Below, piece after piece: positions 4,014-48,667 of a stretch of DNA of 64,000 nt. A program made the translations under genes and the position numbers. Position 1 is the stretch's first letter. Every line of letters begins with the position of its first letter. A model generated the notes under the pieces. It had not been told where the DNA came from and searched no databases. It saw nothing but the letters and a program-made list of their open reading frames with translations. The stretch is from an uncultured delta proteobacterium (GTDB lineage Bacteria; Desulfobacterota; Binatia; Binatales; Binataceae): contig CAWEEQ010000004.1 in the NCBI GenBank assembly GCA_963808235.1, positions 2,368,001 to 2,432,000 on the forward strand, written 5' to 3'.

Positions 4014-4018
4014 TTCGA

Positions 4019-4944: not shown

Positions 4945-5852
4945 GAAGTGCGTTCCATCCGAGTTTCAGGTAGTCCACCTTGCCGAGCTTCGGCCGCCTC
5001 CAGAATACATCGTATTGAATCCGATCGATCGCACGCAGTATCGCGAGTCCGCCGCCGGCGAACATCAGGAGGTCGCGGCTGAGGCGCTTGTCGACCCGCC
5101 GGTAGAGTTCGCCGCCTTCAATCAGCATCGTGCGCGCGACTCCGACTTCGTGCCCCATCAATTCCAGGAACCCGCGCGATGACGTGTGCGCCGCGAGATC
5201 GGCAGCCGTGACTCCGAAGCGTTCCATGTCGCGGCGCGGCAGATAGATTCGTCCCTTGTCAAGATCGACCGCGACATCCTGCCAGAAATTCGCGAGCTGC
5301 AGGCCGCTGCAAATCAGATCCGACAGATGCTGCCGCTCAGCATCGCGATAACCGAAAAGATAGAGCACCAACCGACCGACCGGGTTCGCCGAATGGCGCG
5401 AGTAGCCGAGCAGGTCGTCGAGCGTTTCGAAACCCTTGAAATCGACGTCGGAGCGAAACGCCGTGAGCAGATCCTTGAACGGCTCGCGGGGAATGTCGAA
5501 TCGACGGACGGTGTCTGCGAGCGCGATGAACACCGGATGACGCGGCTTACCTGCGTACGCGCCTTCGAGTTCGCGCTCCCAATTGATCCAGCATCGCGAG
5601 GTCGTGATGCTCATCGGCAAAGTCGTCGGCCATTCGAGCGTACGCATATATCGCGTACATGTGCGGGCGCATCTCGCGCCGCATCAGCCACGACGCGATC
5701 GTGAAATTTTCATAGTGCGATTTCGCAAGCCGCGCGCAGAATTCGTATGACGCAGCGAGGTCGTAGCTCCCCGCGGGCGGCGCCGCCGTGGGCACCGTGT
5801 TCACCGCGTAGCCGGTCGCATCGTTTCGCAGATGAGCGCGCGCACTCTGCAT
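4925..5852 (-). CDS. hpnC: Squalene synthase HpnC; one apparent +1 frameshift (~5585)
   Basis: HYENFTIAS and YAYARMADDFADE in one frame; SANPVGRLVL and QLANFWQDV in the next. Start could be 5852 (ATG) or 5804 (GTG). Confidence 0.85.
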
Positions 5853-5856
5853 CGGA

Positions 5857-7026: not shown

Positions 7027-7036
7027 CGCATCGTGC

Positions 7037-8995: not shown

Positions 8996-9052
8996 ATCTC
9001 ACCTGATCTCTACTTTCGGCTACGCGCCGTGTGCGAAATAATCGCGGCCGTT

Positions 9053-10120
9053 TTATGGAATCACCGCACATTTGAGCGCCGCGCCGCGCTCGAGCATCGA
9101 AAATACTTCCGCCAGATCGCCAAGCCGCCTCCGCGCGTTGACGATCGCGCCGGCATTCAGCCCGCGCCCCGCCAGCAACTCGTAGGCGCGGCGCACGTCG
9201 CGGGGGCGGAAATGAAACGGCGCAATCAAAGTTAAATTGTCGTAATGCATCCGGCGCGTATCGACACGAAGCTCTGTGCCGGCCGGACATCCACCGAAAA
9301 ACACCACCCGTCCACCGCGTCGCACCCGCGCGAGCGCATCCTGCCAACCCTCGACCTGCCCCGTGCATTCGATCACGAGGTCGGGTCCGAAGCCGCTGTT
9401 GACTCTTGCGATCTCATCAGCCGCGTCGACGCCGCGCGCATCGACCACCGAGTCGGCGCCCAGCTCCGAGGCCCACTTGAGACGCTCCGCGCCGCGCCCG
9501 ACGACGACCACCTCGCGCACGCCCGACGCTTTTAGCACCAGCATGTGCAGCAGGCCGAACGCGCCGGCGCCGATAATCACCACGGTTTCGGATTTTTCCG
9601 GCCGCGCCATTTCGTTCGCGTGAACCACGCATGCGAGCGGTTCGAGCAGCGCCGCTTCCTCGAACGGCAGATTTGCGGGCTTGATAAAAGTGTTTCGCGC
9701 GACCACGTGCTGCGGCAGAAGGAGCAGGTCCGCGTACGCACCGAGCACCATCCGCCCGACCGCATCGGCGCAGAGATTTTCCTGTCCGTGCTGGCAATAG
9801 AAACAAATCCCGCATGGCGCGGTCGGCGCCGCCATGATCTCGTCGCCGACCTTGAATGCGCTCACGCCCGCGCCACGCTCTTCCACCACGCCCGAGAACT
9901 CGTGCCCGAACGGAGTCGGCATCTTCCACAGCGGATGCCCGCGCCGGAAAGTTTTGAGATCTGTGCCGCAGCTCAATGCGCACCGAACCCTGATCAGCAG
10001 TTCACCCGGCCCCGGATCAGGCGGGGTAAAGTCGCGCAACTCGAGTCGGCCTGGCTCGACTAGCACCGCCTGGCGCGATTGCGTCTGCGATATGTTCAGC
10101 GTTCGTTCCGCAGCGCTCAC
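9053..10120 (-). CDS. Zinc-dependent alcohol/polyol dehydrogenase (MDR family)
   Basis: CGTD, GHEFSG, CGICFYC...C structural Zn, GAGAFG; GTG start overlaps the ispA stop (GTGA). Confidence 0.9.
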   Translation of the reverse strand: MSAAERTLNISQTQSRQAVLVEPGRLELRDFTPPDPGPGELLIRVRCALSCGTDLKTFRRGHPLWKMPTPFGHEFSGVVEERGAGVSAFKVGDEIMAAPTAPCGICFYCQHGQENLCADAVGRMVLGAYADLLLLPQHVVARNTFIKPANLPFEEAALLEPLACVVHANEMARPEKSETVVIIGAGAFGLLHMLVLKASGVREVVVVGRGAERLKWASELGADSVVDARGVDAADEIARVNSGFGPDLVIECTGQVEGWQDALARVRRGGRVVFFGGCPAGTELRVDTRRMHYDNLTLIAPFHFRPRDVRRAYELLAGRGLNAGAIVNARRRLGDLAEVFSMLERGAALKCAVIP

Positions 10121-11007
10121 AGTTTGCGCTCCACTACAAATGTCGCGAGCTCGCGCAGCGCAATCGCGCGCTCGTCGAAGCTCGCGAGTGCGCAATGAGC
10201 CCGGCTTTCGAGCTCGCGCGCCAAGTCGAGCGAGCGCTCGACTCCCAAAATTGCGGGATAGGTTGCCTTCCCACGCTCGCTGTCTTTCTGCGTCCGCTTG
10301 CCCATCTGCTCGGAGTTGCCCTGGACGTCCAGCAGGTCATCGACAACCTGAAACGCGAGACCGAGCGCACGCGCGTACGCGTCGAGCGACTCGATTTGCG
10401 CCGGGGTCGCGCCACCCATCCGCGCGCCGCCGCGTACCGACGCCAAAAATAGCGCGCCGGTCTTTCTGCCGTGCAGTTCCTCGAGCTCCTCGAGCGTTTT
10501 CGTCTTGCCCTCGCCGAGCAGATCGATCACCTGCCCGCCGACCATGCCCTCCGATCCCGCGGCACTCGCAAGTTCCGCAATCGTCTCGAGGACAATCGGC
10601 GCCGCCACGCCCGCCGCGGTTGCGCGCGCAAGTACCTTGAACGCGTCGGTCAGCAGCGCATCGCCCGCCAGCGTCGCGATCGCCTCGCCATAGACTTTGT
10701 GATTGGTCGGCCGCCCGCGGCGAAAGTCGTCATCGTCCATGCACGGCAGATCGTCGTGAATCAGCGAGTAGGTGTGAATCATCTCCACCGCGCACGCCAG
10801 ATCGATCGCCGCCACGATCTTCCCGCCGACCGCCTCGCACGACGCGAGCGCGAGCACCGGCCGCAGCCGCTTGCCGCCCGCGAGCAGACTGTAGCGCATC
10901 GCCTCCATCAGGCGCGCCGAGGCGCCCGCGGGAGTGTCCACGCATTTCGCAAGCGCCAACTCAACCAACTGGGCGCGTTCTTTTAGATAGTGGTTGAGAA
11001 CGAACAC
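10117..11007 (-). CDS. ispA: Farnesyl diphosphate synthase / polyprenyl synthetase
   Basis: GGKRLRP, LIHDDLPCMDDDDFRRG (FARM), FQVVDDLLD (SARM). Confidence 0.93.
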   Translation of the reverse strand: MFVLNHYLKERAQLVELALAKCVDTPAGASARLMEAMRYSLLAGGKRLRPVLALASCEAVGGKIVAAIDLACAVEMIHTYSLIHDDLPCMDDDDFRRGRPTNHKVYGEAIATLAGDALLTDAFKVLARATAAGVAAPIVLETIAELASAAGSEGMVGGQVIDLLGEGKTKTLEELEELHGRKTGALFLASVRGGARMGGATPAQIESLDAYARALGLAFQVVDDLLDVQGNSEQMGKRTQKDSERGKATYPAILGVERSLDLARELESRAHCALASFDERAIALRELATFVVERKL

Positions 11008-11089
11008 TCTTCTTTTTTCTTTTCTCTCCCGATGGGGATAAATTTCCCCGGCGGAGTCCGGAACAGGCGCAGGCGTTGAAATCGCCCGG

Positions 11090-12094
11090 TTAGGATACGT
11101 AGTGACGGACCATCCGCCACGAGTCTTTCAGATTCTTGCCGAAATCGAGCGCGACCGTGCCTTCAAAGCCCGAGTGCAGCTTGCAATCGCGGCAGCGAAA
11201 ATCCTGCTTGGTCCGGTAGTACTCCCAATCGGTCGCCTCGTGCATTTCCGAAAGGGTCTTGTAGTGACCGTTGGTTATCAAATAGCACGGCCCCTTCCAT
11301 CCCTGCGGATTGCGCGTCACCGTGGTCCACGGGCTGCACTGCAGATCGCGCTTGCCAACCAGGTAATCAAGATAAATAGGCGTGTTGATTATCTTGTAGT
11401 CGTCGGACATGTCGCGAACTTTCACGAACTTCGCCGGCATCTCTTCTTTCTTCAGGTACTCCTCGTCGTTGTTAAGCACCTGGTAATGATATCCGGGGCT
11501 GAGCAGCATCCCATCAACACCGAGACTCGTCAGGTACTTGACCATCGACTCCAGTTCCTCGCTGGTGGTCTCGCGGAAGACGGTCGTATTCGTCTGAACG
11601 CGATAGCCCTTCTCCTTCAGCATCTTGATCATCTTTACGACGATATCGAAATGCCCATGCCGGTCGACGACGCGATCGTTGGTCTCGCGCATCCCGTCCA
11701 GATGCAGGTTGAAGCTCAAGTACGGACTTGGGCCTACTTGCTTGACGAAGCGCTCGAGCAAAATCGCATTGGTGCAGATCATGACGTGACGCTTTTGGTC
11801 CTCGATCAGGCCCATGGTCAGCGCCGCGATATGCTTGTACATCAGCGGCTCGCCGCCGCAGATTGAAACGATCGGAGCGCCCGCTTCCTCGGCCGAATGC
11901 AACGCCTCATCGAGCGGCATCATGTCGCGAATCGTTTCCTTGTACTCGACTATTCGCCCGCATCCGATACACGCGAGATTGCACGCATGCAGCGGCTCGA
12001 GCATCAACACCAACGGAAAATATTTTTCCCCCGCACGCTTCTTCGCGCGCATGTACTTGCCGAGATCGATCATCTGTCTTAGAGGAATGCGCAT
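11090..12094 (-). CDS. hpnH: Adenosyl-hopene transferase (radical SAM)
   Basis: FPLVLMLEPLHACNLACIGCG, GWKGPCYL, CRDCKLHSGFE; hopanoid operon. Confidence 0.92.
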   Translation of the reverse strand: MRIPLRQMIDLGKYMRAKKRAGEKYFPLVLMLEPLHACNLACIGCGRIVEYKETIRDMMPLDEALHSAEEAGAPIVSICGGEPLMYKHIAALTMGLIEDQKRHVMICTNAILLERFVKQVGPSPYLSFNLHLDGMRETNDRVVDRHGHFDIVVKMIKMLKEKGYRVQTNTTVFRETTSEELESMVKYLTSLGVDGMLLSPGYHYQVLNNDEEYLKKEEMPAKFVKVRDMSDDYKIINTPIYLDYLVGKRDLQCSPWTTVTRNPQGWKGPCYLITNGHYKTLSEMHEATDWEYYRTKQDFRCRDCKLHSGFEGTVALDFGKNLKDSWRMVRHYVS

Positions 12095-13051: not shown

Positions 13052-14095
13052 CTAGCTGATTTGATGGGTTAAATTTATTTCAAGTCCGTCGTGGACGGCC
13101 GACCGTCGGGCAGCGTCGATAAGCTCAAGCGCCGTCCGCGCCTCGGCCAGGTTGCGCCGCGCCGTCGGCGATTCGGTTCCTTCGGTAACTGCCTGTTCAA
13201 ACTCCGCCGCTACCGCGCCGAACCACGCCGAATGGTAGGAGTCGTCGGCAACGTCGGCGACGGACAGATTCTCGGCCGCATCAGTGCGGTCGGTCAGAGT
13301 CACGCGATCGCCTTCGATCTCTATACATGCGCGCTCGCCGTAAATTACCGCTGAAGTTCGCCGAATCGGCGCCCGCCACGATAGATGCGCCCGCGCGATG
13401 CATCCCGAAGAAAACGCGACGCGAAGGTCGGCCAGGTTTTCCGCATCGCCACCGGCGGGCAATTCAAGATGCGCCGAGATAGCGGTCGGCACGTCGCCGG
13501 CCAACAGCCATTGCATCAGGTAGAAGACGTGCCATCCGTGATCGATCAAAATTCCGCCGCCGGACTTCGCCGAGGCTCGCCACTTCCCGCCGCTACCGCC
13601 CGCACCCGCAGGCTCGGTACGGAGTCGATCGATCGAGATGAATCGAATGTCGCCAAGCCGCCCCGCTTCGATAGCTCTGCGCGCGACCGCATACGCCGGC
13701 GCATACTTCCAATTATGCACGCACATCAGCACCCGCCCCTGATTCGCCGCAAGCGCCGCGAGTTCATCAAACTCGCCGAGCTCGAGACATAGCGGCTTCT
13801 CGACGATCACATGCGCGCGAGCATTCAGCGCCGCGCGAACCGACTCAGCATGAAACCCAGGCGGACTGGCAATATCCACAAAGTCAGGCGACTCCCCGTC
13901 AAGCATCAACTCCAGGTCATCATAAACACGAACACTCTTAATCAGCCTAATAGCCTCATGCCGCCGCTCGGAGATTGGATCGTGAACAACTGTAAGCGAG
14001 ATATTCTCCCGCGACCACCAGCCAGGAAGATGCGCCCGAGCAGCAACCTCCCCAAACCCAGAAATCGCCCCCCGCAATTTCGCGCTAGTCACCAC
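13052..14095 (-). CDS. Gfo/Idh/MocA family oxidoreductase (inositol dehydrogenase-like)
   Basis: GFGEVA Rossmann motif, VIVEKP, GGGILIDHGWH. Confidence 0.9.
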   Translation of the reverse strand: MVTSAKLRGAISGFGEVAARAHLPGWWSRENISLTVVHDPISERRHEAIRLIKSVRVYDDLELMLDGESPDFVDIASPPGFHAESVRAALNARAHVIVEKPLCLELGEFDELAALAANQGRVLMCVHNWKYAPAYAVARRAIEAGRLGDIRFISIDRLRTEPAGAGGSGGKWRASAKSGGGILIDHGWHVFYLMQWLLAGDVPTAISAHLELPAGGDAENLADLRVAFSSGCIARAHLSWRAPIRRTSAVIYGERACIEIEGDRVTLTDRTDAAENLSVADVADDSYHSAWFGAVAAEFEQAVTEGTESPTARRNLAEARTALELIDAARRSAVHDGLEINLTHQIS

Positions 14096-14723: not shown

Positions 14724-15575
14724 TTAAATGTAAAGCGACGCCATCTTCTTGAGCGTGCCTTCCGAGGACTCGAAGGTGAGATCGCCAAGGCCGGCGACGA
14801 AGCTATGCGCGCCGGCGGCGGCGAACTCCTTCAACCCGTCCTGCACTTTGGCCCGATCGCCGGGGATGCCGCCCATTATCGTGATGTCGAGCTTTGAGAA
14901 ATCGCGTCCGACGGCGGCGCACTCGCGCTTGAGTTCATCGACTCGTTCCTTGAACGCGGGAGCATTCAAGCGAATTGGACACCATCCGTCGGCCCATTTC
15001 GCAACGCGTTTCAGCGCGTTCTTGTCGAGGCTGCCGATCAACACCGGCGGCCCGGACTTCTGCACCGGCTTGGGAAAGGAACGAATCGACGGGAACTTGA
15101 CGTAACGGCCGTCGACTTCGGACTGGTCTTCGGTCCAGAGCTTGCGCATCGCCGCGACCATCTCCGCCGTTTGCGTCCATCGGCGCGGGAAATCGACGTG
15201 GAACAATTCGCTCTCCTCCCGCAGCCACCCGGCGCCAATCCCGAACAGGACGCGGCCGCCCGAGTATGCATCCAAAGTTGCGATTTGCTTGGCGAGCGCG
15301 ATCGGCTCGTGCTCTGGGACCAAACAGATTCCGGTCGCGAGTTTCAGATTCTTCGTTACCGAGGCTGCCATGCTGAGCGCCACGATTTGATCGCCCATCT
15401 GATGATACACCGGCGGAATCGGGCCGCCGCCGGGAAACTGAGTTTTGGGATTGGAGGGCACCGCAGGATGCTCCGGAACCCAGATCGATTCAAAGCCGAG
15501 CGATTCGGCAACTCGCGCGAACTCCGCGGGATGCGCATTCTTGCCGGTAAAGGGAGTGAGTAGACCGATTTTCAT
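14724..15575 (-). CDS. LLM class (probably F420-dependent) oxidoreductase
   Basis: GFESIWVPEH, LAKQIATLDAYSGGRVLFGIGAGWLREE, PKPVQ. Confidence 0.88.
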   Translation of the reverse strand: MKIGLLTPFTGKNAHPAEFARVAESLGFESIWVPEHPAVPSNPKTQFPGGGPIPPVYHQMGDQIVALSMAASVTKNLKLATGICLVPEHEPIALAKQIATLDAYSGGRVLFGIGAGWLREESELFHVDFPRRWTQTAEMVAAMRKLWTEDQSEVDGRYVKFPSIRSFPKPVQKSGPPVLIGSLDKNALKRVAKWADGWCPIRLNAPAFKERVDELKRECAAVGRDFSKLDITIMGGIPGDRAKVQDGLKEFAAAGAHSFVAGLGDLTFESSEGTLKKMASLYI

Positions 15576-15600: not shown

Positions 15601-16077
15601 TCATTTCCAGGAGAAAAACTCTTGCGCGAATACGAACTTGCCGACGCCGGCAGCCTTGCCCGCCTGTCTGTCGACTTCCTGATCGCCGACCATCGTCGAT
15701 GAAGTCAGATCGACGCCGTATAACTCGGCAAGCTCGGTGATCATGCCGCCCTTGGGCTTGCGGCATTCGCATTTGTCGTCGTCGACGTGCGGACAGACCA
15801 GCCACCCGGTGAGGATGTCGCCGAGCTGGCGGTCGAGTTCCACGAGCGCGGCTTCGACGGCTTCCCGCTTGAACCATCCGCGCGCGATTCCGGACTGGTT
15901 GGTGACGACGAACATCAGATGGTCGTGCATCGGGCGGAGTTTCTCCGCCACGTTCGGCAGCAACTGGACGATCACGTTGCCCTTTGCATCGAGTGGCAGC
16001 GAGCGCGTCTCATTCAGCTTGACCAGCGTGCCGCCGAGATCGAAAAACAGCGCCGCGTTTCCATTCGGATTGGACAT
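15601..16077 (-). CDS. HAD-IIIA phosphatase (GmhB/HisB-N like)
   Basis: FDLGGTL, VTNQSG, CPH...CECRKP, MVGD; the second Asp of motif I is replaced by Gly. Confidence 0.85.
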   Translation of the reverse strand: MSNPNGNAALFFDLGGTLVKLNETRSLPLDAKGNVIVQLLPNVAEKLRPMHDHLMFVVTNQSGIARGWFKREAVEAALVELDRQLGDILTGWLVCPHVDDDKCECRKPKGGMITELAELYGVDLTSSTMVGDQEVDRQAGKAAGVGKFVFAQEFFSWK

Positions 16078-16092
16078 CGAAAAAAACTTATC

Positions 16093-17460
16093 TTACGCGT
16101 GGCGCCAGTCAACGTGGTCGCGGACGTGCGCAAACACCTCGTCGAGGATTGCGATGCCGGCTTCCGCCTGCGCCTCCGTGATCACCAGCGCGGGATTGAT
16201 TCGAATCTTGGGGAAGTAGCCCATGATGACCAGTCCGCGCTTCAGGCATTCGGCAAAAATCAGCTCGGTGACTTTTTTGCCGAGCTGTTCTTTGCTCTTG
16301 AGATCGCGGACCAGCTCGACGCCGATCAGCAGACCCTTGCCACGAACGTCGCCGATGAATTCGTATTTTTCCTTGAGTTGCACGAGCCGCGAGAGCATCT
16401 GCGCGCCGACTCTGCGCGAATTCTCGACCAGGTGCTGTTTTTGAATCGCGCGGATCGTTTCCGCGACCGCAACCGCGGCAAGCGGGTTCCCGCCGTAACT
16501 CGATGACGACGCGCTCGGTTTCGAAAACGGCTCGGCCTTGCCGAGTTCGTCGCCGAGCAACACGCCTGAGACAGGGAAGCCGCTGCCCATGCCCTTGCCG
16601 ACGGTCACGATGTCGGGCTTTACGCCGCTGTGATCGACTCCCCACCACTTTCCGGTCCGTCCGAAGCCGGTGATCATCTCGTCGGCGATCAGCAGCGCGC
16701 CGAAATCCTTGGCCACGGATTTTACCGCGGGCATCCAGTCGTCGGGCGGTATCACGTTGCCGGCGGTCCCCTGCATCGGCTCCGCCACGATTGCCGCGAG
16801 CGCGCCGCCGCTGCTCATCTTGATCTGTTGGCGCGCGAAATCGACGCAGTAGAGGCCGCAGTCGGGATACTTCAACTGGAAGGGACACCGGTAGCAGTCC
16901 GCATACGGCATCGTGTACTGCCCGCCCTGCAATGGTCCGTAGCCTTGCTTGGATTCATCGCCGATAAGGCCGATCACGCCGCCGGTCTTGCCATGGAATC
17001 CACCCCAGAAACTCGCGACTTCGTGTTTTTTGGTCGCCGAGCGCGCTAGCCGTATTGCTGCTTCGACTGCTTCGGCGCCGCCGCTGTACAGATGCGCACG
17101 ATTGAGGCCGGCGGGTGCGACTTCGCTCAGAAGCTTGAATGCCGCGGCCCGCTCCTTCGTTGCAAACGTGCCGACCATCAGCCGCGACGCCTGATGCGCC
17201 AGCGCCTCTGCGAGCGCAGGATGCCCATGGCCCAGGCTCGCCACCGCTACCCCGGCGAAGAAATCGACGTAGGTGTTGCCGTCGGCGTCGGTGAGCGTAG
17301 CGCCTTCACCATGATCGAAGGCGACACCGGCGAGCAGCGAAATCCGCTGGCGGCCGGGCGCGATATAGCGCTGTTCGGTGTCGAAAATTTCTTTCGACTT
17401 GGGACCAGGGATGGCAGTTTTGATTGCCGGCAGTTTACCGTCGATGTTTGAGCTGGCGAT
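16093..17460 (-). CDS. Class III PLP aminotransferase
   Basis: DADGNTYVDFFAG, FHGKT, AEPMQG, LIADEMITGFGRTG, DIVTVGKG. The open frame extends upstream of the ORF-track start to an ATC at 17460 preceded by AAGGA. Confidence 0.9.
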   Translation of the reverse strand: MASSNIDGKLPAIKTAIPGPKSKEIFDTEQRYIAPGRQRISLLAGVAFDHGEGATLTDADGNTYVDFFAGVAVASLGHGHPALAEALAHQASRLMVGTFATKERAAAFKLLSEVAPAGLNRAHLYSGGAEAVEAAIRLARSATKKHEVASFWGGFHGKTGGVIGLIGDESKQGYGPLQGGQYTMPYADCYRCPFQLKYPDCGLYCVDFARQQIKMSSGGALAAIVAEPMQGTAGNVIPPDDWMPAVKSVAKDFGALLIADEMITGFGRTGKWWGVDHSGVKPDIVTVGKGMGSGFPVSGVLLGDELGKAEPFSKPSASSSSYGGNPLAAVAVAETIRAIQKQHLVENSRRVGAQMLSRLVQLKEKYEFIGDVRGKGLLIGVELVRDLKSKEQLGKKVTELIFAECLKRGLVIMGYFPKIRINPALVITEAQAEAGIAILDEVFAHVRDHVDWRHA

Positions 17461-17473
17461 TTGCTTTAGTTCC

Positions 17474-18310
17474 TTATTTTAATTTCTGGCCCGTCACTGG
17501 GCGACTCAGCAGACCTATCGCGCGCCGCGCGATCGCGCGAGCGGCAAGCGCCCGGACCCGGCTGTAACTCGGCCAGTCGTTAAAGTCGATAATCGCAAAT
17601 CGATCGCCACTCAAGACCGCGTCTCCGCCCCATACCTCAAGACCGAGCGCTGCGGCGGCGGTCGAGGCGGCCTCCGACAGCGCGCGGACGCTCGCTTCGG
17701 GGACTTCCTCTTCGGGATGTGCGCTGAAATATGCGTTCCCGCTCACGCCATAAAATTTTACGACGCGGCCGGCGACTTCCTGCTGCAGGTAGGCGAAACG
17801 AATCCGCCGCCGTGCGAAATCAGCGAGTATCGATTCGATCTCGGCGCGCTCGGACGCGCGCTGCACGTCTTTGGGGCCAAGCGCGTGGAGATCGCCACGC
17901 TTTACGAACACGCCCGCCGACAGGTCGAGGCCGGCGAGTTTGCGCGCGTCCAATGGCTCGTCGGTCGCGACCAGCGCACCCACCGGCGTCGGTACGCCGG
18001 CGCGTTCGAGGCCGGGCGCGAGCAGGTCGCGATAGCAGTTGCGAATCGAGAGCGCGGAATTGACCGCAATCGCGCCCGCCTGCTCAGCCTCGGCAAGACG
18101 CTTGAGAGCTCGACCACCCTGGCACATCGGCAGAACTATGTCGGCACGCGCGGGCGCGCCGTTGCCAAAGCTGGCCGCGTCGATAGCCGCAGTCTCGACC
18201 CCTTCGCGCTTCAATTCCGTCAGGGTCGCGTCCATGATGGCCGCGTCGAGCTCGACCTTGCCGGGAGAAAATTCGGGTTCGCGGTAGATTCCCAAAGCGC
18301 GATAATTCAT
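17474..18310 (-). CDS. ATP-grasp fold protein, function unknown
   Basis: GVPTP, FVKRGD, LQQEVAGRVVKFYGV, LGLEVWGGD, IIDFNDWPSY. Confidence 0.7.
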   Translation of the reverse strand: MNYRALGIYREPEFSPGKVELDAAIMDATLTELKREGVETAAIDAASFGNGAPARADIVLPMCQGGRALKRLAEAEQAGAIAVNSALSIRNCYRDLLAPGLERAGVPTPVGALVATDEPLDARKLAGLDLSAGVFVKRGDLHALGPKDVQRASERAEIESILADFARRRIRFAYLQQEVAGRVVKFYGVSGNAYFSAHPEEEVPEASVRALSEAASTAAAALGLEVWGGDAVLSGDRFAIIDFNDWPSYSRVRALAARAIARRAIGLLSRPVTGQKLK

Positions 18311-19032
18311 TGGGTGCTCCGTAGCGCACGCCGGGCGGCATCGAGATCCGGCTCTTCGTCAACGTCAATCGCACCATCGATCTCGATTGCGCCGAGATGG
18401 AATTGCCGTTCGATCAGCATCGCAAGAAACCGGCGGAGCGCGTCGAGCCCGGCGCCTCGAGCTTCGCCGGCGAAGTCGAAAATCCGGGTCGACAAAAAAT
18501 AAAGTCCCGCCGTTACCGTTTGAGTCTGAACGCCGCCCAGCCGCACGATCAACCCATCTACTGTTACATCGGCGAAAAGCGCCCGGTTATCGCCGCGCCA
18601 TCGCGTAACGGCCAACACACCATCGAGATTTTTGTCGTTGGATAGCTCAATTTTTCGGCGCGCGTCATTAACAAATCTCGCCAATTCTGTCTGCGGAATT
18701 ACAGCGTCCACCGTCGCCGCGAGGAACCATCCCGGTTCCAGCAGCTCGCCGAGCGCGAGCATCGTCTCCATCGAATTGGCTGTGTTACGAACGACCAGTT
18801 TGACGTCGGGTGGGGTCGGGAGCCTCATTTCATCGGCGATACGCGCGGTTTCGGAGTTGATCACCGCGACGACAGATGATGCGCCCGCCGCGATCAGCGC
18901 GCGTGCCTGCCGCACCAGCATCGTCTCGCCGCCAAGCTCGACGAGCGGTTTTGGCAAGTCGGCACGCGTCGATTTGCGCAGCCGCTCACCGCGGCCCGCC
19001 GCGATGATTGCTCCTTGCAATTTCGTCACCAT
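18307..19032 (-). CDS. NTP transferase (sugar/polyol-phosphate cytidylyltransferase-like)
   Basis: AIIAAGRGERL...PKPLV signature; C-terminal IDVD. Confidence 0.85.
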   Translation of the reverse strand: MVTKLQGAIIAAGRGERLRKSTRADLPKPLVELGGETMLVRQARALIAAGASSVVAVINSETARIADEMRLPTPPDVKLVVRNTANSMETMLALGELLEPGWFLAATVDAVIPQTELARFVNDARRKIELSNDKNLDGVLAVTRWRGDNRALFADVTVDGLIVRLGGVQTQTVTAGLYFLSTRIFDFAGEARGAGLDALRRFLAMLIERQFHLGAIEIDGAIDVDEEPDLDAARRALRSTQ

Positions 19033-19775
19033 TGGATCCGCCCGACTTCATCGATCGAGCCGATCGTAATGTCCGCAAGAGCGTCCGCACCCTCGGGAGG
19101 GGTGCGATTCAAATCCGTGCGCAGCCAAACAGTTCTGAGGCCGAGTTTCTTCGCGGGTGCGCAATCTTTGCTCAGCGAGTCGCCGATTATGGCAGTTCTC
19201 TCGGCAGTCGTTTGGCCTGCGGCTCGCATTTTCTTCAACGCGAATTCGAAAATTCCGGGTTCGGGTTTAAAAATTCCTAGCCGCGACGAATCCGCGATCG
19301 CGTCGAAGAATCGATCGAGGCGCGCGTCGGCGAGAATCCGATCGAGATTCCCATAAAAATTCGACACCACGCCCATCCGGTAACGGCCTCGGAGCGCGGC
19401 GAGGACGTCGCGGCTGTGCTCCAATCCGGCCAACGTCTCACGCACGAATGAACTCGTTACCGCCTCGACTACTCGATGACGCCCCTTTGCGCCGCCTTCG
19501 TCCAGTAACGCCCGGATTTTCGGCGGCCCGCTTTGCCGAAGATATTCAAACTGATGGCCAACGAGGAATCGCACCAGGTCGATCAAGCCGAAGCGAGTGA
19601 CGATCCGCGTGGCCCCATAGCCAATCCTGGTCGCATGGTCGAAGGCCGGGTCGAGTTCCGCGCGGCTGATCTCGACTCCTGCGGCGCGATAATCCGCGAG
19701 GAACCGGTCGAGCCAATGCGCGGGCCCGTCGAGCGTGCCGCCGAAATCGAACAGGATTGCCTCTATGTTTGCCAC
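19026..19775 (-). CDS. HAD family hydrolase
   Basis: FDFGGTLD, VVSNFYGN, KPEPGIF, IGDSLSKD. Confidence 0.88.
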   Translation of the reverse strand: MANIEAILFDFGGTLDGPAHWLDRFLADYRAAGVEISRAELDPAFDHATRIGYGATRIVTRFGLIDLVRFLVGHQFEYLRQSGPPKIRALLDEGGAKGRHRVVEAVTSSFVRETLAGLEHSRDVLAALRGRYRMGVVSNFYGNLDRILADARLDRFFDAIADSSRLGIFKPEPGIFEFALKKMRAAGQTTAERTAIIGDSLSKDCAPAKKLGLRTVWLRTDLNRTPPEGADALADITIGSIDEVGRIQW

Positions 19776-20248: not shown

Positions 20249-21484
20249 TTGACCGCGACCTGTACGCGGCTGAACGAAAACGGTTTTACTAGAACGTTGT
20301 TAATAGAAACTGCACTAATCGCCGCGCCTAACCGCGCGGACAATGCGATTTTCGGGCGCCCGCTCCTGGAGCGGCTGATGATTAATTGCGAGCGCGTCGG
20401 CGTGAAGCGGTTCGTGATCGCGGCGCCATCGGCACAGCATCAGGAACTCGGACACGCGATGGGCCGGTTCAAAAATCTTGACACGGTCTCAATCGTCGAG
20501 TCGTTCGGCGAGGTCTTGGACGCCAGTAGCGCGAATGGGGCGGCAATCGACCCGTCGGCGCCTTGCGTCACATTTTCAGGAAACCTGGTTTTCGCGAAAT
20601 CGCATCTGACGCGGATTTTCGCTTTGCACGCGGCGAGTCCTGAAAGGGTGCATCGCGCGGAAAGCACCGACCGCGATCACGGCGGAGAGATCGCAACCGG
20701 ACCGATCGGTCAGATTCTCGAACGCGCCGGAATCGCGACTATGCTCACGCCGGCCGCGTCCCGCCTGTTGCCATTCGCACTGAACGGACGGCCTGAGGAT
20801 CGTGAGGAGGCGGAGCTGCGGCTGGCGCAAGCCGTCCGCGAGGAATCCGCACACAAGGACGCGCCGATGGCGCGCTGGGTCGATCGGCGTGTCTCGTGGC
20901 GAATCAGCTACTGGCTCGCGACGCACACCTCGATCACGCCCAACATGGTCACGGTCGCAAACACCACGTTCGGACTCGGATGCGCATTCATGTTCGCGGT
21001 GCCGAATTACTGGGCGCGGCTGTTCGCGGCGATATTCTTTCTCATTTCCGTAACGATTGACGGTGTGGACGGCGAGCTCGCACGCCTCAAGATGCAGGAG
21101 AGCGATTTCGGCGGCTCGCTGGATGTCATCACTGACAACGTCGTTCATGTCGGAATCTTCATCGGCCTGCTCGCGGGATGCTATCGCGCGAGCCAAAGCG
21201 CTGCGTACCTGTACCTGATTCCGATTCTGCTGATTGGATTCGCGATGTGCGCCTATGCGACCTGGCGCGCCTTCAAGTTCAAGGGCGAGCAGGCCGCGGC
21301 GTGGCTGGACAAGGTCGATCGATGGAGCGGGCGCGACTTCGCGTACCTGCTGGTGCTGTTGGCTGCAATCAATCGGCTGGAGTGGTTCGCGTGGGGCACC
21401 GCGTTTGGCACCTATGTCTTCGCAGTCGCGCTCATCTGGATCACCGGCCATTCACGATCTCCGTTGTCTGCTGAGAGCCCGTAG
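20249..21484 (+). CDS. CDP-alcohol phosphotransferase with a degenerate N-terminal nucleotidyltransferase-like domain
   Basis: TPNMVT and DGVDGELARLKMQESDFGGSLDVITD match DxxDGxxAR-G-xxxD-xxxD; N-terminal IFGRPLLERL segment. Confidence 0.88.
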   Translation: MTATCTRLNENGFTRTLLIETALIAAPNRADNAIFGRPLLERLMINCERVGVKRFVIAAPSAQHQELGHAMGRFKNLDTVSIVESFGEVLDASSANGAAIDPSAPCVTFSGNLVFAKSHLTRIFALHAASPERVHRAESTDRDHGGEIATGPIGQILERAGIATMLTPAASRLLPFALNGRPEDREEAELRLAQAVREESAHKDAPMARWVDRRVSWRISYWLATHTSITPNMVTVANTTFGLGCAFMFAVPNYWARLFAAIFFLISVTIDGVDGELARLKMQESDFGGSLDVITDNVVHVGIFIGLLAGCYRASQSAAYLYLIPILLIGFAMCAYATWRAFKFKGEQAAAWLDKVDRWSGRDFAYLLVLLAAINRLEWFAWGTAFGTYVFAVALIWITGHSRSPLSAESP

Positions 21485-21511: not shown

Positions 21512-22843
21512 ATGAAAGGTAAGAAGCCGAAACTCCTGTTGGTGCAACCTACGACCGTCCATCTGGACGGCACTCCGCACAAAACCCGCTGGCGGCTGAT
21601 TATGGGGCTGATGATTCCCCTGATGGCGGGACTGACTCCGGACGATTTCGACGTGACGCTGTGCGACGAGCGACTCGAGGAAATCGATTTCGACGGCGGC
21701 TGGGACCTGGTCGGGATGACCACCACGATCGGCGCGTCGCTGCGCGCTTATCAGCTAGGCGACGAATTTCGCCGGCGCGGAATCCCGGTAGTGTTCGGCG
21801 GATTTCATGCAACTCTGCAGACCGAAGAAGCGCTCCATCATTGCGACGCGGTCGTGCAGGGAGAGGCTGACCTGGTCTGGCCCGAGCTGCTGCAGGACTG
21901 GCAGGACGGCAAGCTCAAGCAAGTCTACAAAGCCGACAAGATGCACGATCTGAAAAATCTCCCACGCCCGCGCCATGAGCTGCTCAAGCTCAACCGCTAC
22001 CTGTTCAAAGCGGTGCCGGTGCAGGCGAGCCGGGGATGCCCATATCGATGCTCGTTCTGCGAAATTCCGGTCTTCTATGAAGGCGCGTACCGGACCCGGC
22101 CTATCGAGGACATCGTCGAAGAGATCAAGCAGGTGGTGAAAATCACCGGCTTCAGGCGCTTCCAGTTTATCGACGATCAGATCACCGGCAAGCATAAGTT
22201 CGCGCGTGAGCTATTCAAGGCGCTCGAGCCCTTGAACATCCGGTTCTCATGCCTGTGGACGATCAACTCGAACCATGACGACGACTTGCTCGAGCTGGCG
22301 GCCAAGGCGGGAATCTTCCACGTCAATATCGGGGTCGAATCGATCAGCCAGGAAAGCCTGCTCTCGATGAACAAGATCCAGAATCACGCGGGGCAGTATA
22401 AGAAGCTGCTGAAGAAGCTCGAGAAATACGGCATCTACTATTCGCTCAATTTCCTGTTCGGGCTGGAAGAAGATCATCCCGGCATCTTCGACGACACGCT
22501 CAAGTTCCTGCATGAGGTCAAGGCGCCCGAGGCGTTCTTCAACACGGTGACGCCGCGCCGCGGCACGCCGATGCGCACGCAGCTCGAGAACGAGGGCCGC
22601 GTGATCATCCCCGACGCCGACCTCTACACCAACAACTTCCGCTGCATGTTCGTGCCCAAGAACATGTCGCCGCAGGAAGTCGAAGAAGGCGTGTGGCGAT
22701 GCACGAAGGAATTCTACTCGCTGAAGTCGATGTTCCGCCGGCTGCTGATGCCGCCCGGGAAGTTCACCTGGCAGGGCCTGACTGAGAACATGCTCTTCTA
22801 CTGGGGCGCGAAGCGGCAGATCGATCCGGTCGATTACTATTAG
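21512..22843 (+). CDS. B12-binding-domain radical SAM protein
   Basis: VVFGGFHAT, GEAD, SRGCPYRCSFC (CxxxCxxC); RBS GGAGG. Confidence 0.9.
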   Translation: MKGKKPKLLLVQPTTVHLDGTPHKTRWRLIMGLMIPLMAGLTPDDFDVTLCDERLEEIDFDGGWDLVGMTTTIGASLRAYQLGDEFRRRGIPVVFGGFHATLQTEEALHHCDAVVQGEADLVWPELLQDWQDGKLKQVYKADKMHDLKNLPRPRHELLKLNRYLFKAVPVQASRGCPYRCSFCEIPVFYEGAYRTRPIEDIVEEIKQVVKITGFRRFQFIDDQITGKHKFARELFKALEPLNIRFSCLWTINSNHDDDLLELAAKAGIFHVNIGVESISQESLLSMNKIQNHAGQYKKLLKKLEKYGIYYSLNFLFGLEEDHPGIFDDTLKFLHEVKAPEAFFNTVTPRRGTPMRTQLENEGRVIIPDADLYTNNFRCMFVPKNMSPQEVEEGVWRCTKEFYSLKSMFRRLLMPPGKFTWQGLTENMLFYWGAKRQIDPVDYY

Positions 22844-23967: not shown

Positions 23968-24813
23968 TCAGGGCTGCAGGACGGTATTGTCTATCAGCCG
24001 CGTCTTGCCGACGCGCGCGGCGATCGCAATCAGGATCGGCCGGTCCAGCGACGGGTCCGGCGCGAGGGTTTCGGCGTCGACCGCCTCGACGTATTCAACC
24101 GCCACATTTTTCATCCGCTTGAGCACGCGCGTCGCCGCGAACACGATCTCCTCGGTGCAACACGCGCCGGTGCGATGCTTTTCGCGGGCCGCGCGGAGCG
24201 CGAGGCTCAGCGCAAGCGCATCTTCGCGCTCGGCGGGCGAGAGGTATGCGTTGCGCGAACTCATCGCGAGGCCGTCCTTCTCGCGCACGATGGGCACCGG
24301 GACAATTTCGACATCGAAGTTCAAATCGCGCACCATCCGCTGAATCGAGCGCAACTGCTGGAAGTCTTTTTCGCCGAAAACTGCGAAATGCGGCTTCACG
24401 ATGTTGAACAGTTTCGCGACCACCGTGGTAACGCCGCGAAAATGGCCCGGGCGATTGCTCCCGCAGAGGCCGCGCGTGACCTCGGTCACTTCGACCCAGC
24501 TCTGCGAGTCCAGCGAGTACATCGTCGAAGGCTCCGGCGCGAATACGATGTCCACCGGCACGGTTTGCAACATCGCGCAGTCACGCTCGAAGTCGCGCGG
24601 ATAGCGTGCGAAATCCTCGCCCGGCCCGAATTGGGTTGGATTGACGAAGATCGACGCGACCAGAATTGAGGACCTTCGGCGCCCTTCGCGCATCAGGGTC
24701 AGATGCCCATCATGCAGATAGCCCATCGTCGGCACTAGCGCGATTCGCTCGCCCCTCTTGCGAGCAGTCTCGGCGCACCGGGTCATCTCGTCGGGCGAAG
24801 TAACAATCTCCAT
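23968..24813 (-). CDS. panC: Pantoate--beta-alanine ligase
   Basis: VPTMGYLHDGH, SIFVNPTQF, RPGHFRGV, FGEKDFQQ, GLAMSSRN, RLIDN; own RBS GGAGG and ATG at 24813. Confidence 0.95.
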   Translation of the reverse strand: MEIVTSPDEMTRCAETARKRGERIALVPTMGYLHDGHLTLMREGRRRSSILVASIFVNPTQFGPGEDFARYPRDFERDCAMLQTVPVDIVFAPEPSTMYSLDSQSWVEVTEVTRGLCGSNRPGHFRGVTTVVAKLFNIVKPHFAVFGEKDFQQLRSIQRMVRDLNFDVEIVPVPIVREKDGLAMSSRNAYLSPAEREDALALSLALRAAREKHRTGACCTEEIVFAATRVLKRMKNVAVEYVEAVDAETLAPDPSLDRPILIAIAARVGKTRLIDNTVLQP

Positions 24814-24815
24814 CG

Positions 24816-25650
24816 CTAACTCCTCCGATTCTCGCTGTAGCAATGCTCGCGGCGCGGGGAACGCGCGCTCCTTCACTTCGCGCACGTAGGCTGTGGCAGC
24901 GGCCGTGGCGTCGTTCCACAGATGCGCGAACGGCTTGGCGAAGCGCGGCGCACACCCTTCGACAAGGCCGAGCATGTCATGCATCACCAGCACCTGGCCG
25001 TCGCAATGCGGCCCGGCGCCGATGCCGATAGTCGGGACCGCGACGCGCGCGCTGATCTCGCGGGCCAGTGACGGTGGCACGCCTTCCACGACGATCGCGA
25101 ACGCGCCGGCCGCTTCCAGCGCGGCCGCGTCGTCGAGCAGCCGCTGGCGGCATCCTGGTTTGCGGCCCTGCACGCGATATCCACCCATGCGATGAATCGA
25201 CTGCGGGGTAAGGCCGATATGGCCCATCACCGGTATATCAACCGAGGTGATTCGCCGGATCGTCTCGGCAACTGCGATGCCGCCTTCGAGCTTCACCGCC
25301 TCTGCGCCGCCCTCCTTGACCAGTCTGCCCGCGTTGCGAAGCGCTTCCTCGGAACTGATTTGATAGGAGAGGAACGGCATGTCGGCGATGACCAGCGCGC
25401 GCCGCCGGCCGCGGGCGACTGCGCGGGTGTGATAGATGACTTCGTCGATCGTGACGGCAAGGGTGCTGTCCTCGCCGCGCACCGCCATCGCGAGGCTGTC
25501 GCCCACCAGGAGCGCATCGACGCCGCAGTTGTCGAAGATTCTCGCAAATGGAAAGTCGTACGCCGTCAGCATCGTGATCGGCTGGCCGGCAGCCTTCATC
25601 CGCGCGAAATCCGGAACCCGGACTTTGTCCTGCGAGGTATTTGTTTTCAA
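24816..25650 (-). CDS. panB: 3-methyl-2-oxobutanoate hydroxymethyltransferase; apparent +1 base near 24849 fuses it to panC in the ORF track
   Basis: MLTAYD, LVGDSL, ADMPF, AVKLEGG, GHIGLTPQ, IGIGAG, DGQVLV; corrected end reads FPAPEHCYSENRRS*. Confidence 0.93.
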
Positions 25651-47347: not shown

Positions 47348-48667
47348 CTAGTCGTAGTACTCGAGGCCGAGATGGGTGATCAGATCCTCGCCGCGCATCC
47401 AGCGCAGTGTGTTCTTGAGCTTCATGAGCTGGATGAAAATGTCGTGCTCCGGATAAACCTTCGCCGCATGCATCGGCGCTTTGAAGTAGAACGACAGCCA
47501 TTCCTGGATTCCGCGCATTCCCGCGCGATGCGCCAAATCAAGAAACAGCACCAGGTCGAGCACCAGGGGTGCTGCCAGGATCGAGTCGCGGCAGAGGAAG
47601 TTTATTTTGATCTGCATCGGATAGCCGAGCCATCCGAAGATATCGATATTGTCCCAACCCTCCTTCGAGTCGCCGCGCGGTGGGTAGTAGTCGATACGCA
47701 CCTTATGAAAGAGATCGCCGTAAAGCTGCGGATACATTTCCGGCTGAAGAATTTGATCGAGTACCGAGAGCTTGGTCTCTTCTTTGGATCTGAACGAGCC
47801 CGGATCGTCGAGCACTTCGCCGTCGCGATTGCCCAGGATGTTAGTCGAGAACCATCCCGACATTCCGAGCATCCGCGCTTTCAGTCCTGGCGCGATCATC
47901 GTTTTCATGAACGTCTGCCCGGTCTTGAAGTCCTTGCCGCAGATGGGGATATGAACTTCGCGGGCCAGCTCGAGCAGCGCCGGCGTGTCGGTGGTGAGAT
48001 TCGGCGCTCCGTTCGCGTATGGGATTCCGCTTTTCAGCGCGGCGTATGCATAAATCTGGCTGGGCGCGATCTCGGGATCGTTGTTCGCGAGCCCGGCCTC
48101 GAACTTCCTGAGACTCTCATGAACCTCCGACGGGCGATGGAACACCTCGGTCGATCCGCACCAGATCATCACCGTCCGCGCGACTCCGGTGCGACTCTGG
48201 AAATTCCGGATGTCCTCCATCAGCATCTGCGCCTTGTCCATCTTGGTGCGCGCTTCCTTCACGTTGGGGCCGTGAATCCGCCGCACGTACTCATTGTCGA
48301 ACACGGCTTCCATCGGCTGGAGTTTTTCCAGAGGCTCGCGCACCCGCTCCAGGAGCGCAGGATCGAGCACCGCGGCCTTGCGCGCGGCTTGATACGCATT
48401 GTCTTCGAAGATATCCCAGCCGCCGAATTCGAGGTCGGACAGACTAGCGAGCGGAACGAAGTCCTTGATCAGCGGCGCGCGCCCGTCGGTCCGTTTACCA
48501 AGACGCACGGTGGCAAGCTGGGTCAACGACCCGATTGGAACGCCGAGCCCGCGCTTCACCGCCTCGACACCGGCCATGAAGGTGGTGCTGACGGCGCCGA
48601 TTCCCGGCAGCAAAACGCCGAGCTTGCCCTCCGCCGGCGCTATTCGGACGGGATCCTTTATTGCCAA
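47348..48667 (-). CDS. ino1: myo-Inositol-1-phosphate synthase
   Basis: GIGAVST, WCGSTE, NGAPN, GKDFKTGQT, NILGNRDG, CRDSILAAPLVLDL; RBS AGGAG. Confidence 0.93.
   Translation of the reverse strand: MAIKDPVRIAPAEGKLGVLLPGIGAVSTTFMAGVEAVKRGLGVPIGSLTQLATVRLGKRTDGRAPLIKDFVPLASLSDLEFGGWDIFEDNAYQAARKAAVLDPALLERVREPLEKLQPMEAVFDNEYVRRIHGPNVKEARTKMDKAQMLMEDIRNFQSRTGVARTVMIWCGSTEVFHRPSEVHESLRKFEAGLANNDPEIAPSQIYAYAALKSGIPYANGAPNLTTDTPALLELAREVHIPICGKDFKTGQTFMKTMIAPGLKARMLGMSGWFSTNILGNRDGEVLDDPGSFRSKEETKLSVLDQILQPEMYPQLYGDLFHKVRIDYYPPRGDSKEGWDNIDIFGWLGYPMQIKINFLCRDSILAAPLVLDLVLFLDLAHRAGMRGIQEWLSFYFKAPMHAAKVYPEHDIFIQLMKLKNTLRWMRGEDLITHLGLEYYD

Follow-up and report, generated by a model that had tools for sequence, protein, structure and literature searches.

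Inositol lipids of gut Bacteroidota affect the interaction with the host, and their alternative pathway in Prevotella and Phocaeicola vulgatus has so far been described as a three-enzyme proposal (Heaver et al. 2022, PMC9246714). According to the accessible text of that paper, an NTP-transferase (BVU_RS13095) converts inositol phosphate to CDP-inositol, a phosphatidyltransferase (BVU_RS13105) forms phosphatidylinositol (PI), and a haloacid dehalogenase (HAD) family protein (BVU_RS13115) yields PI-dihydroceramide; the authors themselves call the functions of these enzymes unconfirmed. The present work concerns a related locus in a 64,000-nucleotide stretch of DNA from an uncultured delta proteobacterium of the Binataceae (GenBank assembly GCA_963808235.1, contig CAWEEQ010000004.1, positions 2,368,001 to 2,432,000; hereafter the window), and in particular a gene for an ATP-grasp protein, P0001, which stands there in a cassette with nucleotidyltransferase, HAD and CDP-alcohol transferase genes (Table 1).

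A second described system is the operon of myo-inositol-1-phosphate synthase (MIPS), IPCT and BEPIS in Rhodothermus marinus, which provides a CDP-inositol route (Jorge et al. 2015, as cited in PMC4587543). The accessible part of PMC4587543 further reports that Tannerella forsythia lacks MIPS and makes its inositol sphingolipids with inositol taken from outside, and that neither in T. forsythia nor in mycobacteria is a candidate for an inositol kinase known. The ITPK enzymes are the third point of reference: ITPK1 phosphorylates inositol 3-phosphate, Ins(3)P, and among prokaryotes ITPKs are reported, in the accessible parts of two papers, from Asgard archaea only (PMC6900528, PMC8024741).

We propose that P0001 is a kinase acting on inositol, on inositol monophosphate or on an aminated derivative of these, and that it feeds the nucleotidyltransferase encoded next to it; we put the probability of this reading at about one half. 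The ATP-grasp gene is a fourth conserved member of the module, omitted from the published proposal. It travels with the HAD gene and with a nucleotidyltransferase other than a classical IPCT, so that the published scheme of direct cytidylylation of the MIPS product is probably incomplete.

Gene partners and two versions of the pathway

An earlier note, made from the letters of this DNA alone, had described the open reading frame (ORF) and quoted three motifs from it. Both are real: the translation is intact and each motif was located (Table 1). The closest homologues of P0001 come from Candidatus Binatus and other Binataceae, with 66-97% identity. The start ATG of the gene overlaps the stop codon of the nucleotidyltransferase gene (ATGA, 18307-18310), and its stop codon is one base away from an open frame for a class-III aminotransferase.

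Related loci were collected with the pattern [IV]DxN[DA]WPSF, which biases the set toward sequences that keep this motif. We confirmed 594 of 600 matched stretches, and the locus counts refer to the best 80, including one from an unpublished genome (L003) that enters these counts only. Partners were sought within about 9 kb using hidden Markov models (HMMs) built from Pfam-checked examples, and short contigs make the resulting numbers lower bounds. The 80 loci span at least six phyla, with Binataceae and 'delta proteobacterium' metagenome-assembled genomes (MAGs), Syntrophobacteraceae, Desulfoferrobacter, Bacteroidota, Ignavibacteria, Verrucomicrobiota and Gemmatimonadota represented; the Binatia records among them are MAGs only.

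A nucleotidyltransferase gene accompanies the ATP-grasp gene in 72 of the 80 loci (on the same strand within 300 bp in 63), a CDP-alcohol transferase gene in 70 and a HAD gene in 68. The remaining partners are the class-III aminotransferase (38 loci, within 300 bp in 37), an LPG-synthase-TM protein (28), MIPS (26), a B12-binding radical SAM protein (23, conserved in Binatia and Syntrophobacterales), a Gfo/Idh/MocA oxidoreductase (21), a small HAD (15), an F420-type LLM-class oxidoreductase (6) and a PfkB kinase (3). Both the nucleotidyltransferase and the CDP-alcohol transferase are present without the aminotransferase in 33 of the 80 loci.

The inositol connection that the earlier note drew from neighbouring genes is much stronger than it could see, both from these MIPS counts and from the position of the P. 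vulgatus copy inside a published inositol-lipid cluster. In P. vulgatus ATCC 8482 (L061) the genes for NTP-transferase, ATP-grasp protein, CDP-alcohol transferase, LPG-synthase-TM protein, HAD, PfkB and MIPS follow one another in this order, which matches the 'alternative inositol lipid cluster' called putative in the accessible text of Heaver et al. (PMC9246714). The term 'ATP-grasp' never occurs in that text, and the three-enzyme model passes over the gene between BVU_RS13095 and BVU_RS13105. Our literature search, with most subscription journals outside its reach, found no occurrence of BVU_RS13100 and no paper on the ATP-grasp gene in the context of Bacteroidota inositol sphingolipids. The gene immediately upstream of the entire P. 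vulgatus cluster is pdxA. BT_1524 was rejected as the homologue in Bacteroides thetaiotaomicron; it is described as a GtrA-type membrane protein, and the equivalent ORFs in L074, L080 and L078 match GtrA.

Several of the partners also occur fused. NTP-transferase and ATP-grasp domains are joined in the representatives P0139, P0145, P0202, P0220, P0251 and P0237 and in P0101; HAD, NTP-transferase and ATP-grasp domains form one protein in P0194 (802 aa), and ATP-grasp and CDP-alcohol transferase domains do so in P0263 (700 aa). The HAD is fused to the NTP-transferase in L032 as well as in P0194, and to a membrane protein in L073; a transferase-HAD fusion is reported from P. veroralis in the accessible text of PMC9246714. 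An apparent fusion of the ATP-grasp protein with the aminotransferase in L042 (a 742-aa ORF) was rejected, the ATP-grasp match lying in another frame.

We used the CDP-alcohol transferase of the cluster as an anchor in 301 sampled Bacteroidota genomes, where it was found at 47 places in 42 genomes (E <= 1e-30), and examined 40 of these places with about 8 kb on each side; those left out were G033's own place, two extra places in G339, and the places of G295, G302, G195 and G335. The ATP-grasp gene is present in 17 of the 40 loci, with HAD in 16, MIPS in 16 and the aminotransferase together with Gfo/Idh/MocA in 11. The HAD gene was found in 16/17 loci with the ATP-grasp gene and in 0/23 loci without it (Fisher p = 2.7e-10, uncorrected for relatedness). 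In eight of the 23 loci that lack the ATP-grasp gene, the genes for CDP-alcohol transferase, MIPS and NTP-transferase form a compact operon (L105-L109, L111, L112, L114). With the cluster HMM, the NTP-transferases of these compact operons reach 36-56 bits and those of ATP-grasp loci 237-319 bits; for MIPS the scores are alike with and without the ATP-grasp gene (637-813 bits). In the three compact operons tested (L105, L109, L114) the NTP-transferase is a full-length IPCT match (NF041135, 106-133 bits, positions 2-221); the two tested NTP-transferases from ATP-grasp loci match NF041135 in the N-terminal part only (34-39 bits). Among 21 genomes without the gene at the locus, none has it elsewhere (0/21 at E <= 1e-10; the positive control was found).

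Overall, these data show that two versions of the pathway coexist within Bacteroidota. The basic CDP-inositol route occurs without the ATP-grasp gene; a single package added to it, supplied by the same MIPS, brings this gene together with the HAD, another nucleotidyltransferase and another subfamily of transferase. A changed, re-phosphorylated substrate would fit this pattern, because the ATP-grasp gene, the HAD and the different nucleotidyltransferase come as a single add-on.

Fold, catalytic residues and family placement

The AlphaFold2 model of P0001, made with an alignment of 104 full-length family representatives (28-54% identical to P0001), is confident (pLDDT 95.2, pTM 0.91) and, with its matches to ATP-grasp structures, bears out the earlier assignment to the ATP-grasp enzymes. 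Foldseek places Ddl, ArgX and LysX at the top (4e-14 to 1e-12) and maize ITPK1 at rank 39 (4e-12). A VIA-align comparison that covered 48,161 chains gave 21.9 for RimK, 21.3 and 21.0 for LysX and ArgX, 20.8 for carbamoyl-phosphate synthetase and 20.3 for Ddl; human ITPK1 (18.8), PPIP5K2 (18.6), StITPK1 (18.3) and AtITPK4 (17.6) follow, and then GshB (17.1) and PsnB (16.9). Fold searches cannot separate kinase from ligase, because all ATP-grasp classes lie within about 4 Z units, and the shared fold does not settle the chemistry of P0001.

The catalytic residues are more informative. R10, R94, K137, G181, K185, Y187, G228, G229, N244 and P247 are invariant in the 104 members, and D230, D242, R138, D148, W246 and S248 are kept in at least 90% of them. 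The sequences of the 80 loci all have K137, G139, H142, D148, D242 and N244, 79 have R138 and K185, and 76 have D140; R10, S15, D22, N84, D245, W246, S248 and R253 are further invariants of this set. The metal-binding triad consists of D230, D242 and N244, the last two within the Asp-x-Asn motif D242-F-N244. In HMMER alignments it falls on the D...D-x-N of ITPK1 2odt and ITPK4 7pup, whereas RimK 7qyr has D...E-x-N. The column of K185 has Lys in AtITPK4 7pup and Arg in RimK 7qyr and PsnB 7drm, and the loop after the ATP lysine K137 reads K-R-G-D-L-H-A-L, with the invariant H142, where RimK 7qyr has a Gly-rich loop. Judged by these alignments, all three features of the catalytic site (D-x-N, Lys185 and the lack of a Gly-rich loop) appear to follow the ITPKs and not the RimK-type ligases. 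K185 is presumably the equivalent of the substrate-contact residue K199 of human ITPK1.

Asp, Asn, His, Ser and Trp make up most of the conserved pocket residues, among which basic groups are scarce; such a set suggests a polyol or sugar site. Since so few of them are basic, inositol or its monophosphate would be a more plausible substrate than InsP3 or InsP4, and the basic substrate pocket that the earlier note proposed to look for did not emerge from the conserved residues of the 104 members and the 80 loci. Two further positions vary with gene content. Residue 64 is Gln in 37/38 aminotransferase-type loci and Arg in 39/42 others, and residue 90 is Arg in 22/38 of the former and Glu in 27/42 of the latter. 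These positions may switch the specificity of the enzyme between cyclitols that are aminated and plain ones, or they may be a compensating pair.

As a single sequence, P0001 matches no Pfam or NCBIfam family at E <= 0.01. Its sole Pfam match at E <= 10 is PF05770 (Ins134_P3_kin; E 0.1, 12.5 bits, residues 209-253), and RimK (PF08443) gives no match even at that level. P0001 is a member of neither the ITPK1 nor the RimK family, because it falls below every Pfam and NCBIfam threshold. Its single-sequence search of the PDB returned noise-level matches only (7tn3, E 0.39). The family of P0001 is large: among 1.84 billion, a limit of E <= 1e-3 yields 874 cluster representatives and the stricter E <= 1e-10 yields 545. 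With HMMER, the profile of the 104 representatives matches AtITPK4 7pup (E 9.5e-7, residues 178-270), RimK 7qyr (E 6.2e-5), human ITPK1 2odt (E 1.4e-4, residues 205-252) and EhITPK1 1z2n (E 5.6e-4). A Pfam scan of the same members at E <= 1 found Ins134_P3_kin in 21 (best 3e-5, the lowest E-value of any model), ATPgrasp_ST in 27 (best 0.0019), RimK in 19 (best 0.0072) and TTL in 11. ESM Atlas labels for relatives are a mixture of RimK and Ins134_P3_kin and are not decisive.

At the level of profiles, the likeness to ITPKs seems to exceed chance and to be no stronger than the likeness to ligases. The family would form a separate branch of the ATP-grasp superfamily, about equidistant from ITPKs and RimK-type ligases, because the profile and Pfam scores for the two are similar. 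Of the ITPK1-like signatures that the earlier note saw, the metal-binding and Lys motifs hold up as following ITPKs and not RimK; a place in the ITPK1 family does not, P0001 being below the PF05770 threshold.

Proposed role and competing explanations

In the route that we propose, the ATP-grasp enzyme would phosphorylate inositol 3-phosphate from MIPS, free inositol or, in Binatia, an aminated derivative, and we infer that the phosphoryl group goes to a hydroxyl. The adjacent non-IPCT nucleotidyltransferase would activate the phosphorylated product, and the CDP-alcohol transferase would join the activated head group to a membrane lipid. A kinase ahead of a nucleotidyltransferase is standard pathway logic, as in HldE or AmgK/MurU. 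We favour a sub-model with a phosphate relay, where the kinase would add a second phosphate at another position and the partner HAD would remove one phosphate, before cytidylylation or after lipid transfer. Both placements of the HAD are supported by its fusions with the NTP-transferase, with a membrane protein and, in P. veroralis, with the transferase. In the version found in the window, the aminotransferase, the Gfo/Idh/MocA oxidoreductase, the second HAD and the F420-type oxidoreductase would probably aminate the cyclitol. The fullest form of the proposal is tentative: it makes the family a bacterial counterpart of the ITPK-type kinases that places a second phosphate on MIPS-derived Ins(3)P or, in Binatia, on its aminated derivative, after which the HAD shifts the phosphate and the non-IPCT cytidylyltransferase yields a different CDP-cyclitol.

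A number of observations weigh against the kinase reading. The closest overall fold to the P0001 model is that of a ligase (RimK) and not of an ITPK; the earlier note had named such a best match, together with a lack of phosphotransfer to inositol phosphates, as what would count against its kinase idea, so that the first half of this is what we find, with a small spread among classes. The best PDB match of the family profile is likewise a ligase, PsnB 7drm (E 3.8e-8, residues 63-267, HMMER), and the ITPK alignments span the C-terminal third only. The PF05770 score of P0001 lies below the gathering cut-off of 23. According to the accessible text of PMC6900528, the most conserved substrate contacts of ITPK1 are H167, K199 and R212; H167 and R212 could not be mapped onto P0001, the alignments not spanning those positions, and neither the 104 members nor the 80 loci have an invariant Arg after K185. 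The basic route of MIPS, IPCT and transferase, in the form cited in the accessible part of PMC4587543, needs no kinase, and the need for one arises from the relay and its regiochemistry, as we infer them.

Gene content adds to these points. In 25 of the 50 genomes whose locus is without MIPS, no MIPS was found anywhere, among them the isolates Dyadobacter luteus, D. luticola and Olivibacter sitiensis as well as a Verrucomicrobiae MAG record deposited as a whole chromosome; many of the other MIPS-less genomes are MAGs, where absence is weak evidence. In two loci of Bacteroidales (L074, L080) the gene stands beside a cluster of GtrA, PIP-synthase-type transferase and PAP2 genes with no NTP-transferase, and L052 and L078 are also without a detected NTP-transferase. 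In a Bacteroides sp. MAG (L077, 7980-8852) the ATP-grasp homologue is alone between pdxA and yceD; it may be what persisted when the other cluster genes disappeared. Finally, both HADs of the window's cassette have Gly at Asp+2 of motif I, where classical HAD phosphatases keep Asp.

An inositol kinase of the plain kind would suit the MIPS-less genomes and L074, L080 and L077 better than one that uses InsP. Since the MIPS-less cases and those without a nucleotidyltransferase fit a plain inositol kinase, we leave the substrate between inositol and InsP. We keep a plain salvage kinase, whose product would be the same as that of MIPS, as a sub-variant of the kinase reading: it suits the MIPS-less genomes and L074 and L080, and it leaves the strict coupling to the HAD and to the non-IPCT nucleotidyltransferase unexplained. 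Two of the three loci with a PfkB kinase are MIPS-less Dyadobacter loci. Some of the MIPS-less genomes have sphingolipid-type genes around the cassette. In L043 (Verrucomicrobiae) it is flanked by a serine-palmitoyltransferase-like class I/II aminotransferase, a GNAT protein and a sphingolipid delta-4 desaturase-like gene, and in L027/L048 (Dyadobacter) the aminotransferase is found with an epimerase/3-beta-HSD-type reductase, a fatty-acid hydroxylase and PEMT.

The strongest competitor, which we regard as rather unlikely, is a carboxylate-amine or carboxylate-hydroxyl ligase of the RimK/LysX kind that would attach an amino acid or another acid to the (amino)cyclitol of the head group or else to a carrier protein. 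The fold and profile rankings given above agree with it, and the catalytic residues do not, with D-x-N instead of E-x-N, Lys instead of Arg at 185 and no Gly-rich loop. A ligase role is also less likely because 33 of the 80 loci have no aminotransferase, which weakens the earlier note's alternative of an amide ligase with the aminocyclitol as substrate. The scanned neighbourhoods showed no gene for a carrier protein or a peptide, and the fusions with the nucleotidyltransferase would go unexplained. P. vulgatus, like P. veroralis, makes phosphoinositol dihydroceramide (PMC9246714, accessible text); because the known P. vulgatus product is this unmodified compound, it leaves no room for a ligase to have introduced an amide or ester. 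Taken together, these points make a kinase more likely than a ligase.

Some other chemistry of P0001 is improbable, and a further, more specific reading stands lower still. In this reading the phosphate would serve as a leaving group that a dehalogenase-like HAD displaces at carbon, giving inversion or substitution and a different inositol isomer. The strict coupling of ATP-grasp gene and HAD speaks for it, as do the properties of the HAD itself: motif I reads FD[FYL]GGT in 7/7 aligned homologues (including those of L005, L020, L027, L029, L061 and L072) and is conserved across phyla, and the nearest solved chains of the window's protein are PH0459 and haloacid-dehalogenase-like proteins. Against it, motifs II to IV of the phosphotransferase type are retained in this HAD, the idea is pure speculation, and we know of no HAD enzyme that displaces phosphate from a cyclitol in an SN2 reaction. 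For the kinase reading, the Gly at Asp+2 and the dehalogenase-like solved relatives mean that the HAD as a phosphatase partner is not secure, and the cassette HADs may carry out chemistry other than plain hydrolysis of phosphomonoesters.

A true ITPK1-like enzyme that builds InsP3 to InsP6 for signalling or phosphate storage can be set aside as very improbable, for all its ITPK-like motifs, weak PF05770 matches and a MIPS gene in the genome, given the score below the Pfam cut-off, the few conserved basic residues for a polyphosphate pocket, constant partners that are head-group activation and transfer enzymes and not other inositol-phosphate kinases, and the restriction, in the accessible parts of PMC6900528 and PMC8024741, of reported prokaryotic ITPKs to Asgard archaea.

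What is new in this analysis is the coupling of the ATP-grasp gene with the HAD and the non-IPCT nucleotidyltransferase, the residue 64 switch and the D-x-G motif of the HAD. The P0001 family is a candidate for the missing inositol kinase in Bacteroidota, a gap noted for T. forsythia and mycobacteria in the accessible text of PMC4587543. If P0001 is a kinase, ITPK-like chemistry, so far a matter of eukaryotes and Asgard archaea, would reach at least six bacterial phyla as well. If the bisphosphate relay is also true, ordinary bacteria would have an inositol bisphosphate metabolism, the inositol sphingolipid pathway of gut Bacteroidota would be corrected, and soil Binatia would make an undescribed amino-inositol phospholipid or phospho-hopanoid.

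The window and its comparison with known systems

Table 1. Features of the window discussed in the text (position 1 is the first letter of the window).
Feature	Position	Strand	Remarks
ATP-grasp gene P0001	17474..18310	minus	278 aa, stop-free translation
Motif LQQEVAGRVVKFYGV	17744..17788	minus	residues 175-189; holds the hinge and invariant K185
Motif LGLEVWGGD	17621-17647	minus	residues 222-230; holds D230
Motif IIDFNDWPSY	17564-17593	minus	residues 240-249; holds D242-x-N244
Residue 64 of P0001	18119-18121	minus
Residue 90 of P0001	18041-18043	minus
Nucleotidyltransferase, MobA-like / sugar-1-phosphate NTP-transferase type	18307..19032	minus	Pfam PF12804 9.1e-11
HAD-IA family protein	19026..19775	minus	Pfam PF00702 1e-14; atypical motif I D-x-G
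Class-III aminotransferase	16093..17478	minus	Pfam PF00202 2.5e-83, from profile position 40
Small HAD-IIIA-like protein	15601..16077	minus	Pfam PF08645 and PF00702; motif I FDLGGT
F420-dependent LLM-class oxidoreductase	14724..15575	minus	TIGR03619, 235 bits (cut-off 166.9)
Gfo/Idh/MocA oxidoreductase	13052..14095	minus	Pfam; best NCBIfam iolG, 77.9 bits (cut-off 355)
CDP-alcohol phosphotransferase, divergent	20249..21484	plus	Pfam PF01066 at residues 230-382
N-terminal extension of the CDP-alcohol transferase	20249-20860	plus	about 200 aa
B12-binding radical SAM protein	21512..22843	plus	Pfam; adjoins the CDP-alcohol transferase
MIPS	47348..48667	minus	Pfam PF07994 7.1e-98; 29 kb from the cassette
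Isoprenoid/hopanoid genes	2628-12094		flank the cassette
PanB-PanC ORF	23968-25650	minus	560 aa

The genes that the earlier note called inositol-type neighbours are real; as to their type, two of them score far below the curated cut-offs, the Gfo/Idh/MocA oxidoreductase (Table 1) and the CDP-alcohol transferase, which reaches 84.6 bits with the DIPPS half of NF041135 (IPCT/DIPPS cut-off 580). The nucleotidyltransferase matches the IPCT/DIPPS model weakly, over its N-terminal part only (29.8 bits). MIPS is the sole copy found in the source genome (PF01658 search, one match). The N-terminal extension of the CDP-alcohol transferase has no Pfam match in 204 aa, and the homologues in Binatia and Verrucomicrobia likewise bear an extension. 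The radical SAM protein was ruled out as HpnJ (79.9 bits, cut-off 577.6).

The aminotransferase frame is open for 461 codons, its homologues have 454-463 aa, and its first ATG, GTG or TTG comes 78 codons in, at 17244. Just past the stop of the ATP-grasp gene, AAGGAA precedes an ATC codon. The lack of an early start of the usual kind could reflect a rare start codon, a sequencing error or truncation at the N-terminus.

The hopanoid island comprises genes for an amine-oxidase-type flavoprotein, squalene/phytoene synthase, DXP reductoisomerase, squalene-hopene cyclase, a Zn alcohol dehydrogenase, a polyprenyl synthetase and HpnH (381 bits, cut-off 225), and a TetR gene lies between it and the cassette. 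On the other side, a single ORF joins the domains of PanB (ketopantoate hydroxymethyltransferase) and PanC (pantoate-beta-alanine ligase). The Binatia module, enlarged with amination genes in this island, may make an undescribed lipid head group.

In the ADP-heptose route, the HldE kinase, the GmhB phosphatase and the HldE adenylyltransferase act in turn. The logic that we propose is the same: once a second phosphate has been added, a HAD takes off the first, and the new one is activated by a nucleotidyltransferase that is fused or adjacent. The analogy is one of pathway design only, as the HldE kinase has the PfkB fold and GmhB a normal D-x-D. With ITPK1 and ITPK4 (PF05770; 2odt, 2qb5, 1z2n, 7pup), P0001 shares the ATP-grasp fold with its D...D-x-N triad and the Lys at the AtITPK4 position; unlike them, it is bacterial, stands in lipid head-group operons, is about 50-60 residues shorter than ITPK1 chains and, by its conserved residues, has a far less basic pocket. 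From RimK, LysX and ArgX (4iwx, 5k2m, 3vpb), with E-x-N, Arg after the hinge and a Gly-rich loop, it differs in all three features, and no S6- or LysW-type partner was seen near it.

The operon of Rhodothermus marinus likewise brings CDP-activated inositol to lipid via a CDP-alcohol transferase (cited in the accessible part of PMC4587543). The operons of similar make-up in Bacteroidota have neither the ATP-grasp gene nor the HAD, and in the three tested their nucleotidyltransferase is a full-length IPCT match, whereas the ATP-grasp clusters use another nucleotidyltransferase and another CDP-alcohol transferase subfamily. A further counterpart of the window's cassette is the alternative inositol lipid cluster (PMC9246714, accessible text), with the same module of NTP-transferase, CDP-alcohol transferase and HAD and with MIPS and LPG-synthase-TM nearby. 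The three-gene module of the window matches this gene set, with MIPS 29 kb away, and adds to it the aminotransferase, the Gfo/Idh/MocA oxidoreductase, a second HAD, the F420-type oxidoreductase and the B12-radical SAM protein, all within a hopanoid island.

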